Source of the DNA: an uncultured Chloroflexia bacterium
GTDB lineage: Bacteria; Chloroflexota; Dehalococcoidia; DSTF01; JACRBR01
DNA length: 64,000 bases
Assembly (NCBI GenBank): GCA_963843685.1
Contig: CAWJLO010000010.1
Location: forward strand, 390,933-454,932
Direction: 5' to 3'
In this document: positions 11,878-28,540 of the stretch, one piece after another
Numbering within the stretch: position 1 is the stretch's first letter
Layout: the number at the start of each line of letters is the position of its first letter
Program-made: the position numbers and the translations under genes
Notes under the pieces: model-generated
Database searches by the model: none
The model's input: the letters and a program-made list of their open reading frames with translations, nothing else
What the model was told of the DNA's origin: nothing

Positions 11878-12351
11878 TCAGGATGGAGCTGTCGTGTTCA
11901 TCTCACCTCCACGTGCCGGCACCGGAGGAGTGACCCGAGACGCCGCGCCAGTGAGGTCGACGCGGAACTGCGGCCACGCATCGATCAGGTAGAGCGCAAA
12001 CGGGATCCACCAGATGAAGTCGTTCGTGACGCAGACGAGGAGCGTCGCCGACGGCCATGAGCCCCGAGCCACAAGCACGAACACACCGCTCGGGCCGAGG
12101 AGCTTGCCCAGCAGCCCTGCGGCGGCGAGCGGCCAGCCCCGCTCCGGCACGCGGGCGACCTCGAAGTAGACCAATCCGTACAGCCCGACGACCATGCCGA
12201 GTGCAGCGAAGACTTCGACGCGCTCGGCCGCCGAGTCGCCGGTGAGCCGATAGAACCAGCGCGGGTACACGGCCGACACGCACCCCCAGGCGAGGTTGTA
12301 GGCGCCTGCGGCAACGAAGACGGCTCGATGCAGCCGGCGGCGCGGAATCAT
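11878..12351 (-). CDS. Hypothetical membrane protein (157 aa)
   Basis: MIPRRRLHRAVFVAAGAYNLAWGCVSAVYPRWFYRL... has several TM helices. ATG at 12351 overlaps the upstream gene stop (ATGA). Confidence 0.5.
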   Translation of the reverse strand: MIPRRRLHRAVFVAAGAYNLAWGCVSAVYPRWFYRLTGDSAAERVEVFAALGMVVGLYGLVYFEVARVPERGWPLAAAGLLGKLLGPSGVFVLVARGSWPSATLLVCVTNDFIWWIPFALYLIDAWPQFRVDLTGAASRVTPPVPARGGEMNTTAPS

Positions 12352-12896
12352 CGTGGTGCGACCCGCCACGGCCAACCGCCGCGTGGCAGCCCCAGCAGCG
12401 CGTACAGGTCGCGGACGCCCGAGACGAGGATTCCCCCGGCCATGACAACCAGTAAGGCGAGAAGGGCGGCGTTGTCGGTTCGGGCTGTCGCAAACACCGT
12501 CGGCTCGCTCCACCAGTCGCGCAGCACCGGCACGAGATAGCCGAGCATGGCGCCGTACACGATGCCCATGAGCGCATGCGTCACCCGCTCGCCGGGGAAG
12601 ACGCCCCCGAGGGGCCGCCGCACCCACTCCTCGACGATGAAGTCGCCCATCGTGGCCACGATCTCCGTCAGCAGAAGCACCGCCAGGACGGCCACAAGCA
12701 GCCCATGCCACGCGAACAGCGGCAGCGTCACGAAGATGATCACGTAGACGAAGTCGCGCACGACGTGAAAGCGGAGCTCTGCCGTCGTCGTGGGGACGCG
12801 CGCGGGGAGCCGGCCGCGCCACTCGTGGAAGTAGAGCGTGTCGAACGCGCCCAGCAAGCCCTGCAGCGCCAGCAGCACGAGCACGATCGTCATCAC
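12348..12896 (-). CDS. Hypothetical membrane protein (182 aa)
   Basis: MMTIVLVLLALQGLLGAFDTLYFHEWRG... has 4-5 predicted TM helices. ATGA overlaps at both ends. Confidence 0.5.
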   Translation of the reverse strand: MMTIVLVLLALQGLLGAFDTLYFHEWRGRLPARVPTTTAELRFHVVRDFVYVIIFVTLPLFAWHGLLVAVLAVLLLTEIVATMGDFIVEEWVRRPLGGVFPGERVTHALMGIVYGAMLGYLVPVLRDWWSEPTVFATARTDNAALLALLVVMAGGILVSGVRDLYALLGLPRGGWPWRVAPR

Positions 12897-22207: not shown

Positions 22208-24233
22208 CTAACGAACCGTGACCGTGCCGACGTTTCTGAGTTCACGCGACTGGCTTTGCGCGACTGCGGGATCGCCTTGCGAGTCGAAGACAGCAAGGCG
22301 GATCTGGTACGTGCCCGGAGCGATCGAGCGCGGGACGAGAACGAAGTAGGATTCGCGCACGAGATCACCAGGCTTCCACGCAGACGTGGTGAGCGCGCCC
22401 TCGCCGATCACGCGGGTCTGCGACCAGTCTGGGAACCCGCGCACGCTGGCGGCCTGTCCAGAGGCATCGAAGAAGAGCGTGGTCGCGGAAAGGTCATCGG
22501 ACAGGGGAGCGTCGGCGCGCCAGTAGTACGAGAACTCGGCAAGGGTGCCGCGCTCGACGGTCGACTGATCCTCCTCGAACCCGGCGAGCGTCACGCCCTG
22601 GGAGAAGGGCACGTCTTGCTCGGCGCCTGACGGCACGGCCGTCGCGCGCGGGTCCGGGGCCGTGGCGTAGAGCCTGTACAGCGTGCCCGTCATGGCGAGG
22701 TCGTCGCGATACGCGGGTTTCGGCAGCACATCGGTCAGCATCCGCTCGATGCCGTCCGTGAGCACGGGCTGGACGGAGAACGTCCGGCGGAGATCGGCGA
22801 GCGGCGTGCGCAGGCCCTGAGCGACGTACACCGGCCGGCCCGCCGCCTCCTGCTCACGGGCGAAGGCTGCGACGTCCTCCCCGGGCACCGAGAAGATCGG
22901 CGAGACGAGGACGTCGCGCCGCTGCCCTTCGACCATCTGTACGTACCAGAGCGGGCTCGCGGTCCAGGTGTCGGTAAGGACAACGGCGCGATCCGGGAGG
23001 TGTGCCAGCGTCTGCGCGGCGAAGTCATGCGCCGCGTAGTCGCTGCTTCTGTCGACGCGCGCGTGGTTCTTCGCGAGAAGCGCCAGCGGCAAGAGCGCGA
23101 GCAGCGAGCCGAGCGCGGCCGTACGCAGCCACGGCCGGACGCTCGAGGCATCGGCGCGGCGGACGACATCGATGATCCACGCGGCGCCCACGCCGACGAG
23201 CACGCAGAGGGCGAGGTAGCCGGGCGTGAGGTAGTTGTAGATGTTGTGGATGGAGTAGGCCTCGACGACGAGCGCGTCGAGGAACACCACCATCGCGAAA
23301 TAGGCGGCGACGGCGCGTTGGCGCCGCGCGCAGGCGACGAGGCCGAGGGCGGCGATCGCGAGGCCGGCCCACGTGAGGTCATATGAGGGGTACGACCAGA
23401 GCACGTTGATACGGTCCGCGAGGTCGAAGCGCCAGTAGGCGGAAGGGGTCTGTCCGTTCAGGAACATCGACCAGTAGGTGTGCCAGTTCGCCGGCTGCGC
23501 CCAGTTCAGCATTGGGTGCTGCGAGGCCCGGATCGGCAGGTAGATGTACACGCCGAGGCCGAGCACGAACATCGCAATCGCCGCGATTACGGTCCTCGGG
23601 CGCAGGCTACGCCAGCCCAGCAGCAGCAGCATCGCGGACGGCGGCGCCGTGAGGACGATGAGCCGGTGGTTACACATGCCCAGCCCGAATGCCAGGGCGG
23701 CCAACGCGAGCGACTGCGGCGACCGGTCGCGCCACCAGGCGAGCATGCAGCGGACGACGATGGCGGTGATCAGCAGGTTCAGACCGTAGGACGTCGCCCA
23801 GGTGGCGTTGGCCCAGACGGTCGATGCGAATGCGAGTGTGAGGGCGCCGATCACGGCGGCCACGGGCTCGTCGGTCAGGTCGTGAATCGTCGCCGCCACG
23901 ACGCCGGCAGCGGCCGCGGTGCACACGGCGGACATGAGGTTCACGCGATATGCGGTCGTGCCGACAGGGCAGAAACGTGAAGAGCTTCCCGAGGAGGATC
24001 AGCAGCGGATAGCCGGTGTTGTGGGCGATACCCAGCGTCGCGGAGGCCGTGGTGAACTCGCCCATGTCGTACCACATGACCGTCGGCGCGAGCGTCGTCA
24101 GATACACAGCGAACGCCGCGCCGCCAGCGCAGAAGGTGACGGCGATGGACAGCGCGCGATGGCTCAGGCGGACTCGGGGGAGCCGCGCAGACCAGGCAAG
24201 ACCCGGGGCGCGATGCGGCAGGTCAAGCTGCAT
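22208..24233 (-). CDS. DUF2723 / GT-C family (PMT/ArnT-like) membrane glycosyltransferase, interrupted by apparent +1 frameshift near 23960-23970
   Basis: The N-terminus (ALSIAVTFCAGGAAFAVYLTTLAPTVMWYDMGEFTTASATLGIAHNTGYPLLILLGKLFTFLP) lies in the frame of track ORF 23670..24302. The downstream reading PVGTTAYRVNLMSAVCTAAAAG... continues in the frame of ORF 22208..23944. About 11 TM helices plus a C-terminal soluble domain. Confidence 0.65.
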
Positions 24234-25323
24234 TGAGCGCGCTGCCGCCGAGCAGGCGGCCGAGCTCCTCGGGCGACCGCGAGAACGCCAGTGCGGTCTC
24301 ACGCGAGATCGTCTGATGGCGCACGCGATCCGCCAGCTCCTGATCGAGGGTGCGCATGCCGATCGCGGCGCCGGTCGCCATGACGGTGGGGATCTGGTGC
24401 GTCTTCGCTTCCCGGATGAGGTTGCGGACGGCGGACGTGCCGAGCATCACCTCGCACACGGCGAGACGGCCGTCCCCGGCGACGTTGGGCACGAGCACCT
24501 GCGAGATGATGGCCTCGATCACCATCGAGAGCTGGAGGCGGATCTGCGGCTGCTGGTAGCTGGGAAAGGCGTCGACGATGCGGTCGATCGTCTGCGGTGC
24601 GTCGGGCGTGTGGAGGGTCGCGAAGACGAGGTGGCCGGTCTCGGCGGCGGTGATAGCCGACGCCATCGTCTCCAGGTCGCGCATCTCGCCCACGAGTATG
24701 ACGTCGGGGTCCTGCCGGAGGACGTGCCGCAGCGCTTCGGCGAACGACCGAGTGTCGATGCCGACCTCGCGCTGCTTGATCACGCTGGTGTGATTGGCAT
24801 GGAGGAACTCGATTGGGTCTTCTACGGTGACGATGTGGCGCGCATCGCGGCGGTTGATCCGGTCGATCATCGACGCCAGTGTCGTCGACTTACCGCTGCC
24901 CGTCGGGCCGGTAACCAGTACGAGGCCCCGCGGGAGTTGCGTCAGCCGCTCGCAGACCTGCGGCAGGCCAAGTTCCTCCATCGAAAGCACGGTGTCGTTG
25001 ACGCGACGAAAGGCGAAGTAGAGATGGCCGCGCTCGTACGCGACGTTGGCACGGAAGCGGCCGACGCCGTCGACGTGGAGCGCCTTGTCCAACTCACGCG
25101 CGCTCTCCAGCCGGGCGCGCTCGTCAGGGCTGGTGACGAAGTCCAGGATGTGTGAAAGGTCGCCGTCGTCGAGGGGATCCACGCCGGCGATCGGCGCCAG
25201 GCCGCCGTGAACCCGGCAGATGGGCGGTGTGCCGAACGAGAGGTGCAGGTCGGATGCGTCGCGCGCGGCCATCTCGCGCAACAGTTCGACGATCGAAACC
25301 GCGCCGTCTGCTCCGTCGATCAC
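24223..25323 (-). CDS. pilT: Type IV pilus retraction ATPase PilT
   Basis: IVELLREMAARDASDLHL..., Walker A (VLVTGPTGSGKSTTLASMI), the Asp box and the His box, and AIRNLIRE. Probable GTG start at 25323. Confidence 0.85.
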   Translation of the reverse strand: MIDGADGAVSIVELLREMAARDASDLHLSFGTPPICRVHGGLAPIAGVDPLDDGDLSHILDFVTSPDERARLESARELDKALHVDGVGRFRANVAYERGHLYFAFRRVNDTVLSMEELGLPQVCERLTQLPRGLVLVTGPTGSGKSTTLASMIDRINRRDARHIVTVEDPIEFLHANHTSVIKQREVGIDTRSFAEALRHVLRQDPDVILVGEMRDLETMASAITAAETGHLVFATLHTPDAPQTIDRIVDAFPSYQQPQIRLQLSMVIEAIISQVLVPNVAGDGRLAVCEVMLGTSAVRNLIREAKTHQIPTVMATGAAIGMRTLDQELADRVRHQTISRETALAFSRSPEELGRLLGGSALNAA

Positions 25324-25679
25324 GACGCAACTCCTCGTCTCAGTGCGATGCCGCAGACAACGATGAGGCCCTCGCTCGCGGCCGCGATCGCGGTTGCGGC
25401 GGCCGGCGGAAATGTCATGAACGCGACCGCGAACACGGCGGCCGAAGCCGCCTCCACGGTAGGTGCCCGGAGGCCAATCGATGCGTGGCAGGTCGCGCAC
25501 CGCCCTCGGAGGAGCAGATAGCTGAGGATCGGCACGAGCTCCGACGGTCGGAGCACGCGGCCGCAGGCGTCGCAGCAGGAGCGCCCGTTGAGTGATCGGC
25601 GCGCCGGCACACGATCGATGGCCGCATTGGCGAAGCTTCCGAAGGCGAGGCCGAAGAGCGCCGCATAGACAGCCATCAT
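25320..25679 (-). CDS. Prepilin peptidase N-terminal domain-only protein (A24 N-terminal Zn-binding domain; no peptidase domain)
   Basis: 119 aa: LFGLAFGSFANAAIDRVP...RSCCDACGRVL...LRGRCATCHASIG, i.e. two CxxC pairs as in the PilD N-terminal domain. The ORF ends 3 nt before the pilT start, so there is no room for the catalytic TM domain. Confidence 0.6.
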   Translation of the reverse strand: MMAVYAALFGLAFGSFANAAIDRVPARRSLNGRSCCDACGRVLRPSELVPILSYLLLRGRCATCHASIGLRAPTVEAASAAVFAVAFMTFPPAAATAIAAASEGLIVVCGIALRRGVAS

Positions 25680-26257
25680 CGCTCGACCTCCAGCGTGAAC
25701 GCGCCGCCCCGGGCTGCGTCAGGAGTAAAGGAGATCATGCGCGCTGAGGAGAAGCTCTCGACCGAGACGAGCCTGTCAGCGTAAGCGATGGCATCGAGCG
25801 GGCCGGCGGCGACGCCGTCAACCTTGAAGCCGCCGTCGGTGCCGGCGATGGTCGTGAGGCGCGCGCCTGGTGGCAACAATCCGGGCGCCCAGAGGCGGGC
25901 GAGGTCGTCGTCGAGCGGCCGGACGCCGCCCTGGATCAGCGCTCGTTGCCGCTCGATAGCGGTGATCTTGGTCGTGAGGTCGGCCAGCTCGATCCGCTGG
26001 GCGCGCTGGCTTGCGACGTCCAGTTGCAGGCCGTGCAACGACGCCTCCGCCTCGCTGGCCTGGGTCGCGGCGTCGTCGGCGCGTTGCTGCGCGCGTTCGG
26101 CGCGCACGCCGAACGGGATCAACGCGACGAGCAGGAGCACGAACACGGCTCCGGCCACGACCGCCCATGCGGGCGCTTCCCGCGGGCGCTGGTCGCGCGG
26201 CAGCAGGTTCAGATCGACAATGAGGCCCGAACGGCCGCGAAGATCCAGGGTGCTCAT
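25676..26257 (-). CDS. pilN: Type IV pilus assembly protein PilN-like
   Basis: N-terminal IVDLNLLPRDQR (the INLLP motif), a single TM, a coiled coil, then a C-terminal domain. ATGA overlap with pilM. Confidence 0.6.
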   Translation of the reverse strand: MSTLDLRGRSGLIVDLNLLPRDQRPREAPAWAVVAGAVFVLLLVALIPFGVRAERAQQRADDAATQASEAEASLHGLQLDVASQRAQRIELADLTTKITAIERQRALIQGGVRPLDDDLARLWAPGLLPPGARLTTIAGTDGGFKVDGVAAGPLDAIAYADRLVSVESFSSARMISFTPDAARGGAFTLEVER

Positions 26258-27147
26258 GCCGCGAGCTCCTTGAGCGCCAGACCGACATTCGCGGCGAAAC
26301 GCGCTGTGTCGGAATCCGGGCGGATGGGGATGCGCAGATGCGGCATCGTCACTTCGTGACCGGTCTGGGCAGCAATCTCCACTGAGAAGAGCGCTTGCGG
26401 CGCCGCGCCGCCGACAAGCGAGATCGGAAAGGCGTCGACCTCCACCTCGTCCCGGTGAGAGTCGCGATAGAACTTGAGTGTGCGCACGAGCTCTTCGGTG
26501 AGCTGCTGCCCCCAAGCGGGGTCGTCGACGGACGCGGACATGCCTATGTAGCGGACGATGGCGGGGACGCCGCTCCGGAAGATGGCGAGTTCGATCTCCT
26601 CGCTCTCCAGGTGGGCGATGATGCAGTCCGGCTCGCCGACGGCGCGCGCGGCGGCGATGACGCGCAGGTCGGCCGCGACAGGGGTCAGGCGGGCCGCACG
26701 CAGCGCCGCGATGTGCGAGTCGAGCACGTCGCGGGCGACGCCGATGACGAAGACGCGCACCTTGCCCTCGTGCTCCGTCGTGCGGGTCCACGAAACGTAC
26801 GCGTTGTCGGCGAGCATGGGCATCTCGCGGCGGATCTCGCGCTCGGCCATCTCCGTGAACTGCTTGCCGCGCAGAGCGGGCAGCTCCAGCGTGCGAAAGA
26901 CGGAGCGCTGCGCAGGCAGGGCCGCGACGACGCGCATCCGGCGCCGGCCAGGGAAGCCGGGCGCGGCCCGCAGCGCCGCGCCCGCTGCCGCGGGATCGGT
27001 GATCACGCCGTCAACTACGAAGTGCGGCGGCAGGGCCACCGCACCCACGGAAGACACGCGTCCGGGACGCCCGAGCGTCCAGCGCGCTTCCCCCTCGTGG
27101 ACGGCGACGGTGAGGACTGGCTGGCGCAGCAGCGCGCGGATGTTCAT
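26254..27147 (-). CDS. pilM: Type IV pilus assembly protein PilM-like (actin-like ATPase fold, short form)
   Basis: 297 aa with a glycine-rich actin-fold segment (LVGGAAP) and the typical operon context upstream of pilN. Confidence 0.65.
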   Translation of the reverse strand: MNIRALLRQPVLTVAVHEGEARWTLGRPGRVSSVGAVALPPHFVVDGVITDPAAAGAALRAAPGFPGRRRMRVVAALPAQRSVFRTLELPALRGKQFTEMAEREIRREMPMLADNAYVSWTRTTEHEGKVRVFVIGVARDVLDSHIAALRAARLTPVAADLRVIAAARAVGEPDCIIAHLESEEIELAIFRSGVPAIVRYIGMSASVDDPAWGQQLTEELVRTLKFYRDSHRDEVEVDAFPISLVGGAAPQALFSVEIAAQTGHEVTMPHLRIPIRPDSDTARFAANVGLALKELAA

Positions 27148-27788
27148 GGCCGGACCCCCGGTGTGCTGGCCGCGGCGACCGCCGTCGGCGTGGCCGCTTC
27201 GCTGTAGGCCCTGAACGACAGCTCCGCCTGCGCGAGCCCGGCGTCCGTCACGTTCATCGAGACCAGCAACGGGAACATGGCGGGCTCGGTCTTCCGCATG
27301 TCCATGAGATACGCGGCGACCTGGACGGGCGATCCGCTGACCGACACGGTCAGCGCTTGCACGTCGTAAGTGACGTCCCCGATCCGCGCCGACGCCGGAG
27401 CCACGCGCGTGATCCCACGCACGTCAAGCCCGGCCGCGTCCGCGTGTAGCACGAGGAGCGCGGTCGCGGCATCGGACGCTGGATCGACGTCCGGTGTGAG
27501 CGGCTCCGCCTGCCAGGCGGCGTACTCGGCGCGGGCCCACTTGAGCTGATCGGCCAGATTCTCCGATGCACCCGGGGGCAACGCCAGGAGCTGCTGCGCG
27601 TCGGCGGTGCGCTGCTGCGCGTCGCGCTCGTCGCGCTGTGCGTTGTGCGCCGCGAGGAACGTGGACGTATAGGCGATGGCGAGCACGGCAGCGGCAAGAC
27701 CAACGAGCACGTGCGGCGGGATGTGCACCGAACGGGGAGCGCCAGCCAGGGCGCGTCGCCAGCCCTTTCGTGTCAGTTCAACTGCCAC
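27144..27788 (-). CDS. PilO-like bitopic membrane protein
   Basis: Short cytoplasmic N-terminus, one TM (VLVGLAAAVLAIAYTSTFLAA), a coiled-coil region, then a C-terminal domain. Position in the operon is consistent with pilO. Confidence 0.45.
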   Translation of the reverse strand: MAVELTRKGWRRALAGAPRSVHIPPHVLVGLAAAVLAIAYTSTFLAAHNAQRDERDAQQRTADAQQLLALPPGASENLADQLKWARAEYAAWQAEPLTPDVDPASDAATALLVLHADAAGLDVRGITRVAPASARIGDVTYDVQALTVSVSGSPVQVAAYLMDMRKTEPAMFPLLVSMNVTDAGLAQAELSFRAYSEAATPTAVAAASTPGVRP

Positions 27789-28540
27789 GACGCCACCTTC
27801 AAGCCGCTATACCCCGCCACAAGACGCGCCACGGAGCTGCGGCTACCCACGGTCGACGCCACCTCGTAGGTGGCGGCCGGGACGCTCAACGTGATCGTGC
27901 CGGTCGTCGCGACGTCCGTTTCGATCACGAGCTTGTACGTGCCCGCCGAGGCGAGCGTGAAATCCGCCTGGTAAGGAGAGGAGGCAAAGGGCGGCGCCAG
28001 AGGCCCGGAAGGACAGCTCGCCACGCCGGGGAGCAGTGTCGCGCGCACCTGGCCCGACGATGTCGTGATGCGAGCGGAGAGCGTGCCGGCGTCTGACGCC
28101 TGCACGTCGTAGCATTCGAGGAGCGCTCCGCTGTTCCACACGGGGGTCTGCGCCTCCACCGCACCTGCACCGGCCACGAATCTGACCTGGGTGGCCGGGA
28201 ACGCGGCTCCGTTCACCGTGGCGGGCGGCAACGGTGAGAAAGCCGTGATTGGCTCAAAGCTGGTGTCGGAGGTGAGCAGGGGATTCGATATGAGGAGATA
28301 CCCTGACCACTCGATTCCCGCATCCATGCTGTAGCGCTCCAGCGCCCTGATGCCGACCTGATTGGTGTAGCGGGAGTCTGTGCTGGCCCCGGTCAGGAGC
28401 GGCGTGACGAGGAGCGCGCCGACAGCGAGCGCGGCGATGGCGAGCGGCAGCGCCTGCCCCCGCGCGTCCCGCAGCGCCTCCAGACGCCGTCGCCAGCTCT
28501 CTACCGCCGTCATCCGCGTCACTGGCCTCCTCATCTCCAC
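27773..28540 (-). CDS. Hypothetical membrane-anchored protein within pilus operon
   Basis: N-terminal hydrophobic segment LPLAIAALAVGALLVTPLLT with no Glu at +5. About 250 aa. Confidence 0.4.
   Translation of the reverse strand: MEMRRPVTRMTAVESWRRRLEALRDARGQALPLAIAALAVGALLVTPLLTGASTDSRYTNQVGIRALERYSMDAGIEWSGYLLISNPLLTSDTSFEPITAFSPLPPATVNGAAFPATQVRFVAGAGAVEAQTPVWNSGALLECYDVQASDAGTLSARITTSSGQVRATLLPGVASCPSGPLAPPFASSPYQADFTLASAGTYKLVIETDVATTGTITLSVPAATYEVASTVGSRSSVARLVAGYSGLKVASWQLN

Follow-up and report, generated by a model that had tools for sequence, protein, structure and literature searches.

The window considered here is a stretch of 64,000 nucleotides (nt) from an uncultured Chloroflexia bacterium (contig CAWJLO010000010.1), with a G+C content of 67.5%, and its minus strand carries a type IVa pilus cluster. 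Between a pilN-like gene and pilT of this cluster lies a gene for a protein of 119 amino acid residues (aa) that corresponds to the N-terminal domain of the type 4 prepilin peptidases (family A24), encoded separately from any peptidase domain. We refer to this gene and its product as A24N. Its features, from the start of the gene to its end, are the following.

25320..25679, minus strand: stand-alone A24 N-terminal ('methylase') domain protein, 119 aa (open reading frame (ORF) list, Pfam, homologues, AlphaFold2 (AF2) model)
25676..25691, minus strand: GGAGG (25691-25687), 7-nt spacer and ATGA (25679-25676) shared by the pilN-like stop and the A24N start (sequence)
25611..25676, minus strand: transmembrane (TM) helix 1, residues 2-23, with invariant G10, G14-S15-F16 and R23 (AF2; conservation in 51 A24N members and 145 full-length PilD N-domains)
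25470..25610, minus strand: predicted cytoplasmic Zn-binding loop, residues 24-70 (charge count, 7 Arg against 2 acidic residues)
25563..25574, minus strand: first Cys pair, C36-D-A-C39 (sequence; invariant)
25488..25505, minus strand: G59-R60 followed by the second Cys pair, C61-A-T-C64 (G59 100% and R60, as Arg, 90% conserved in the 51 A24N members)
25413..25469, minus strand: TM helix 2, residues 71-89, with invariant E76, 100% in both sets (AF2; conservation)
25326..25406, minus strand: TM helix 3, residues 92-118 (AF2; alignment with seven full-length PilDs)
25320..25335, minus strand: AGGAG (25335-25331), 7-nt spacer and GTGA (25323-25320) shared by the A24N stop and the pilT start (sequence)

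The 119-aa sequence begins MMAVYAALFGLAFGSF and closes with ALRRGVAS at its C-terminal end. Its single Pfam match is PF06750 (A24_N_bact; 91.5 bits against a cut-off of 23, E 3.4e-26), with residues 8-90 covering the whole profile (positions 1-84 of 84). The peptidase domain (PF01478, Peptidase_A24; IPR000045) gave no match to the protein in Pfam at an E threshold of 0.1, and NCBIfam holds no model for it. The two cysteine pairs are separated by 21 residues (CxxC-x21-CxxC) and lie in the loop between TM helices 1 and 2; the motif of Pseudomonas aeruginosa PilD is likewise CXXC-X21-CXXC (PMC3584216). By its score, by this four-cysteine (Cys4) arrangement and by the Gly and basic residue preceding the third cysteine, A24N belongs to PF06750/IPR010627. 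It is not a type 4 prepilin peptidase in the sense of MEROPS A24A, as it has neither PF01478 nor either of the catalytic Asp residues, and it cannot act as a peptidase.

Aligned with seven full-length PilDs, A24N is 35-46% identical across TM helix 1, the Zn loop, TM helix 2 and the third helix, and it stops exactly at the column of PilD's first catalytic Asp (xIDxxxxxIP[DN]), where it reads IALRRGVAS. Thirteen positions reach at least 99% conservation in the 145 full-length PilD N-domains (G10, G14, S15, F16, R23, S34, C36, C39, P50, C61, C64, I68 and E76), and each of them is 100% conserved among the 51 A24N members; site-wise conservation in the two sets gives a Spearman coefficient of 0.63. 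G59 and R60 correspond to the Gly and the basic residue beside the third cysteine of PilD. In PilD, pilin methylation dependent on S-adenosylmethionine (SAM) requires the Zn bound by the four cysteines and cleavage does not (PMC3584216), these two residues beside the third cysteine contribute to methylation (Pepe & Lory 1998, as cited in PMC3584216), and IPR010627 is treated as the methylase domain (PMC4471445, PMC10191384).

The A24N stop codon TGA (25322-25320) and the pilT start codon GTG (25323-25321) share bases in a 4-nt GTGA overlap. Because the pilT start lies inside the A24N stop codon, there is no coding space for a peptidase domain. For a comparison of these borders, 15 sequences were extracted, comprising the window and 14 related loci (loci are designated L001, L002 and so on; L008 and L011 were left out). 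In all 15 the A24N stop overlaps the start of pilT as ATGA or GTGA, and in 10 (the window, L001, L002, L004, L005, L010 and L013-L016) the A24N start overlaps the stop of the pilN-like gene as ATGA; in L003, L006, L007 and L009 the script picked another A24N start codon. The original prediction, made from the sequence of the window, had described the N-terminal tetracysteine domain of PilD as a stand-alone 119-aa protein next to pilT, with no catalytic domain able to follow. The whole-profile match to PF06750, well above its cut-off and unaccompanied by PF01478, the overlapping codons and the assignment of the adjoining gene to PilT (TIGR01420) all bear this out, and the gap of 3 nt that it placed before pilT is in fact the 4-nt overlap.

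The AF2 model of A24N, calculated with the family alignment as input, has a predicted local distance difference test score (pLDDT) of 94 and a predicted template modelling score (pTM) of 0.83, with helices at residues 2-23, 71-89 and 92-118. In this prediction the domain folds independently, and confidently so. In full-length PilD, the counterpart of helix 3 is the helix that opens the peptidase domain. The charge bias of the loop (residues 24-70) fits the cytoplasmic side and an N-out/C-in topology under the positive-inside rule, which would agree with the assignment of the four-Cys loop of PilD to the cytoplasm (PMC3584216, PMC10191384). No relatives of A24N were found in the PDB, either by sequence or by fold.

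The gene is not peculiar to the window. Among 5.8 billion protein clusters, 53 matches were found, 48 of which are 117-123 aa long and carry PF06750 only, at identities from 98% down to about 52%. A profile search of 1.84 billion representatives, run without filters, ranked four clusters of 120-121 aa at or near the top, ahead of full-length PilDs of about 250-270 aa. Beyond the 48 matches, three clusters of 120-121 aa lie below 50% identity. Altogether, over 50 domain-only homologues of 117-121 aa are known. Further stand-alone families were sought among the other short representatives and rejected, most of these remaining short PF06750 matches being fragments that read on into the catalytic DxxxxxIPD motif. 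A scan of genomes, including metagenome-assembled genomes (MAGs), for A24N loci, which used an alignment of 15 closer sequences, placed the gene in ten species-level genomes. Fifteen other metagenome contigs have it as well. In about 25 independent loci of Chloroflexota/Dehalococcoidia MAGs and metagenomes it occupies one and the same slot (pilM, pilN-like gene, A24N, pilT, glycosyltransferase). Nine of the ten genomes are MAGs labelled Chloroflexota, Dehalococcoidia or 'Chloroflexia', and one, L004, is labelled Thermoanaerobaculia. The A24N of L004 (JBBRMQ010000140.1, binned as 'Thermoanaerobaculia bacterium') is identical to that of L002 (JBBQVO010000046.1, a Dehalococcoidia MAG), and the PilN-like, PilT and glycosyltransferase proteins of the window give the same tblastn statistics against both; L004 is probably a mis-binned contig. 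So far, the stand-alone form in a pilus operon is limited to one soil or groundwater lineage of Chloroflexota.

Within this lineage, A24N is a conserved gene family under purifying selection. The full gene order is identical in L001-L011 and in L013-L016, the latter from an independent groundwater sequencing project, and in the other 50%-identity clusters the core order of pilM, a 188-aa gene, A24N and pilT is kept with overlapping stops and starts. Pairwise ratios of nonsynonymous to synonymous substitution (dN/dS) for A24N range from 0.13 to 0.48, with a value of 0.23 for the least saturated pair (dN 0.085, dS 0.374), and 14 columns are invariant in an alignment of 28 sequences. The tail that forms helix 3 is the least conserved part of the protein, with a dN/dS of up to 0.97 in some pairs. 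The same ORF with the same junctions is found on about 25 independent contigs held by JGI, ENA, NCBI and Logan, which come from separate sequencing projects, and a JGI contig that is 98% identical to the window (L020) carries the gene without any indel. On L001, L009 and L011, pilB, pilT or pilM is spread over two or three frames, with frame breaks at L001 1371-2285 and L009 2829-2853 (pilB) and L011 8528-9420 (pilM); these look like indel errors, and the A24N ORF on the same contigs is intact.

The neighbouring genes of the window identify the cluster as type IVa by their matches to PF00437 with MshEN, PF00482, PF11104, TIGR01420, PF07963 and TIGR02532. In the order of transcription they are as follows, with A24N in its place between the pilN-like gene and pilT.

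34969..35313, minus strand: major pilin, class III signal peptide MLKRLNSEAG|FTLTELLIVV with G-1, F+1 and E+5 (PF07963 29.6 bits, cut-off 21.2; TIGR02532 IV_pilin_GFxxxE 27.8 bits, cut-off 16.3)
33214-34914, minus strand: pilB (PF00437 3.5e-120, with MshEN)
31962-33203, minus strand: pilC (PF00482 1.4e-60)
31597..31965, minus strand: minor pilin, 122 aa (PF07963 N_methyl 17 bits, below cut-off)
28543..31600, minus strand: large protein of PA14 repeats whose N-terminus, RRRGEGG|FGLVELV, is prepilin-like (both ORF pieces match PF07691)
27144..28540, minus strand: two conserved genes for proteins of 255 aa and 214 aa, in that order, each with one N-terminal hydrophobic segment and no family match (ORF list, Pfam, synteny)
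26254..27147, minus strand: pilM (PF11104 PilM_2 2.5e-10)
25676..26257, minus strand: pilN-like bitopic protein, 193 aa (no Pfam match; follows pilM and is conserved in all loci)
24223..25323, minus strand: pilT, retraction ATPase, 366 aa (TIGR01420 PilT/PilU 4.1e-134; PF00437)
22208..24302, minus strand: TMEM260-like/PMT_2 glycosyltransferase gene, downstream of pilT (PF11028; synteny)

The major pilin is the presumed substrate, and the cleavage/methylation motif is found in the pilins of the operon. The minor pilin of the window scores below the PF07963 cut-off, and its orthologue in L013 reaches 21.3 bits against the cut-off of 21.2. There is no secretin gene in the pilus cluster, as would be expected given the cell envelope of Chloroflexota. 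The glycosyltransferase gene is present in all 10 loci that reach past pilT, and because of this synteny it is a candidate for a pilin glycosyltransferase.

The original prediction took the operon to be intact apart from A24N, and here it must be amended, since two genes of the window are frameshifted. The PA14-repeat gene is split by the insertion of a single T near 30148 (CGGCTTGTGGGTG in place of the expected CGGCTGTGGGTG). The glycosyltransferase gene has one extra T near 23966 (23936-23995) relative to L020, which leaves the ORFs 23670-24302 and 22208-23944 where L020, L005 and other loci have a single ORF of 534-644 aa; the split gene is either a true pseudogene of this strain or a sequencing error. 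As to the PA14-repeat protein itself, it is roughly 1000 aa long, with three PA14 repeats and Thr/Pro linkers, and it could be a tip adhesin. Its slot varies across loci, with PA14 repeats in some and DUF7483 in L013. Directly upstream of the pilus cluster (35537-39429, minus strand) lie genes for an ABC ATPase of 205 aa and for an FtsX-domain permease of 1092 aa that has about 18 hydrophobic segments.

A prepilin peptidase is to be expected in this organism because the pilins of the operon have canonical class III leaders. A six-frame scan of the window and L001-L011 for the motif G.GD.[KR] gave only spurious off-frame matches, and Pfam searches of all multi-TM ORFs of the window yielded no A24 peptidase domain. 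A custom hidden Markov model (HMM) built from 14 PilD C-terminal domains found nothing at E <1 in the window, L001-L016 or L020-L034; it recovered the positive controls L017-L019 at 1e-46 to 1e-49 and, having been built from PilD-type sequences, could miss an enzyme of the TadV or FlaK type in these loci. Nor did the NCBI accessions of the A24N family and the PF01478-containing proteins from two large searches have any MAG in common. PF01478-only proteins of 160-230 aa do occur in databases. One ORF of the window, 12348-12896 on the minus strand (182 aa), was considered as a cryptic peptidase, since its Asp19 and Asp85 have a FlaK-like spacing, and was rejected: Pfam finds nothing in it up to E 10, and its comparison with the C-terminal-domain profile in hhalign yielded a probability of 0.2%. 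The same ORF has a high G+C content at third codon positions (0.90) and five predicted TM segments.

We propose, with about an even chance of being right, that A24N is an autonomous pilin N-methyltransferase module whose partner, an A24 peptidase, has its gene at another place in the genome, a reading drawn from sequence conservation and the published biochemistry of PilD. It takes up one of the options of the original prediction, that of an N-methylation-related fragment. The analysis establishes the gene with its domain content, conservation, gene order, selection, confidently modelled fold and retained N-domain invariants; that the protein methylates pilin, that a partner peptidase exists and of which type, and how the gene arose are inferences. 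A pilD in an ancestor of these Chloroflexota would have lost everything from the first catalytic Asp onward, and the remaining half would have become a gene of its own in the type IVa operon, coupled in translation to the pilN-like gene on one side and to pilT on the other. The pilins of the operon would lose their class III leader (G|F..E5) to an A24 aspartic peptidase whose gene lies elsewhere. A24N would be embedded in the membrane, its Zn loop on the cytoplasmic side where the freshly cut pilin N-terminus appears, and would there perform a Zn-dependent, SAM-dependent methylation of the N-terminal residue. It could act as a free enzyme or non-covalently docked to the peptidase. Several points weigh against such an enzyme. 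There is no recognisable SAM-binding fold in the A24N domain, and in PilD the binding of SAM could depend on residues of the peptidase half. The original prediction had advised a search for a full-length pilD in the rest of the genome; no A24 peptidase was found in the 64-kb window or, as far as the contigs reach, up to 10 kb on either side in about 30 loci. Family-wide switches relative to the full-length enzymes (P32G, P37D, N48L, R62A and Y72T/A) may reflect an altered function. Finally, catalysis of methylation by IPR010627 'remains to be formally demonstrated' (PMC4471445).

Some of these points would suit a different role for the protein. A24N could be a non-catalytic component of the pilus machine, a membrane adaptor built on the pilin- and Zn-binding architecture of the PilD N-domain that might retain the N-termini of pilins or connect PilT with the PilM/N platform. 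Every locus has it in the same slot, flanked by the pilN-like gene and pilT with 4-nt overlaps, and both the five substituted positions and the lack of a recognisable SAM-binding fold would agree with such an adaptor. A scaffold, however, should have relaxed some of the universal N-domain residues, and all are kept, including G59 and R60, which have been tied to methylation (PMC3584216); we also found no precedent for such an adaptor in the literature, and we consider it unlikely. The retention of helix 3 suggests instead a surviving packing interface, as would be needed if A24N were an obligate subunit of a PilD fissioned into two genes, inactive alone and requiring a separate C-terminal-only peptidase that may in turn depend on A24N. 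The fission of TadB/TadC is a precedent (PMC10191384), and the PF01478-only proteins noted above would be the kind of partner required. Yet halves usually stay adjacent after a recent fission, and no C-terminal-only gene is adjacent or within 10 kb in any locus. Cleavage by PilD is independent of its Zn site (PMC3584216), TadV and FlaK work without the domain (PMC10191384), and helix 3 is just where conservation is lowest and dN/dS approaches 1 in some pairs. We regard an obligate subunit as rather improbable.

Two simpler explanations would take the gene for an accident. The original prediction raised the possibility of a decayed pilD, that is, a pseudogene fragment that stays open by chance, and the absence of both catalytic Asp residues and the frameshifts in two neighbouring genes of the window would agree with decay. 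A remnant, however, would not be expected to keep a near-constant length to below 50% identity, the same stop/start overlaps in a fixed gene order, dN/dS values as low as those given above, 14 invariant columns among 28 sequences and every N-domain invariant, and we consider decay very improbable. It had also been said that an assembly error, in which a deletion took out the peptidase domain, would undo the prediction. The two single-base frameshifts nearby are the one indication in its favour; the same ORF and junctions in some 25 independently assembled contigs of other sequencing projects, and the indel-free L020, make such an artefact next to impossible. The domain-only relatives that the prediction had suggested looking for are those described above, PF06750-only proteins of 117-123 aa in the same slot of about 25 loci.

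More tentatively, and at somewhat less than an even chance, A24N could be the first natural autonomous pilin N-methyltransferase, self-sufficient, Zn-dependent and membrane-embedded, with a fold unlike known SAM enzymes, and selected throughout a whole Chloroflexota lineage after loss of the peptidase. The N-methylation of pilin would then have a fitness value separable from that of leader cleavage. That IPR010627 is a methylase has never been formally demonstrated, and this is a named gap in type IV pilus biology (PMC4471445). In PilD the methylase cannot be studied apart from the attached peptidase; A24N offers a minimal 119-aa construct for biochemistry and structure determination, from the SAM site to the role of the zinc, and its retention argues, as evidence from evolution, for a role of this half on which selection can act separately. 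There is a consequence for annotation as well. Databases label A24N proteins 'prepilin peptidase' although they are not peptidases, and surveys in which either IPR010627 or IPR000045 is taken to indicate a peptidase would overcall it in this lineage.

Among known systems, A24N is most readily compared with PilD/XcpA of P. aeruginosa and the other bifunctional type 4 prepilin peptidases (MEROPS A24A; IPR010627 plus IPR000045), of which it is homologous to the N-terminal module. It shares with them the cysteine motif and its spacing, the Gly and basic residue before the third cysteine, the GSF, R, P, S, I and E invariants and the predicted topology with a cytoplasmic Zn loop, and it is encoded in a type IVa pilus cluster near pilins with G|FxxxE leaders. 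It differs from them in lacking the GxGD motif and in its length, 119 aa against about 250-290 aa. Distant clusters found with PilD queries, L017 and L036, have a full-length pilD at the end of a block of pilB, pilC and a gene for a small membrane protein. Their pilB is only 41% identical, and the L036 group includes proteins that NCBI names Dehalococcoidia. A full-length pilD closing this block fits an in-place truncation of an ancestral pilD.

The N-domain also occurs in other arrangements. The P0051 cluster (129-135 aa) resembles A24N in carrying PF06750 only, in its similar length and in a similar C-terminal end (KRG-RS), and is unlike it in lying outside pilus clusters and in having the otherwise invariant G14 replaced; it is apparently an independent short form. 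Its gene (L012 638-1045; 10 cluster members, C-terminus KRGRS) shares bases with the stop codon of the cytidylate-kinase-like gene before it; isochorismatase, DUF4230 and TerB genes come next. Four database 'PilD' proteins (P0055, P0056, P0057 and P0064, 345-494 aa) contain two A24 N-domains or two full PilD units in tandem. P0056 appears to be a head-to-tail fusion of two complete enzymes through an acidic linker, and others resemble assembly duplications.

TadB/TadC provide a precedent for a two-module component of type IV filaments that has been split into separate genes (PMC10191384), but those genes stay adjacent in one operon, whereas the operon described here contains one half only, the other, if there is one, lying elsewhere. 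Further counterparts are the peptidase-only A24 enzymes, TadV/CpaA/FppA and archaeal FlaK/PibD. Enzymes of the TadV/FlaK type establish that the halves of PilD are separable and that cleavage proceeds without the Zn domain (PMC10191384, PMC4322843, PMC3584216). Reviews cover these methylase-less peptidases and not the converse (PMC4471445, PMC10191384), and we found no description of a stand-alone methylase-domain protein in the literature searched. What is new here is the architectural arrangement of a known domain, whose function we infer from its sequence: A24N is the mirror image of TadV and FlaK, with the methylase domain kept and the peptidase gone.

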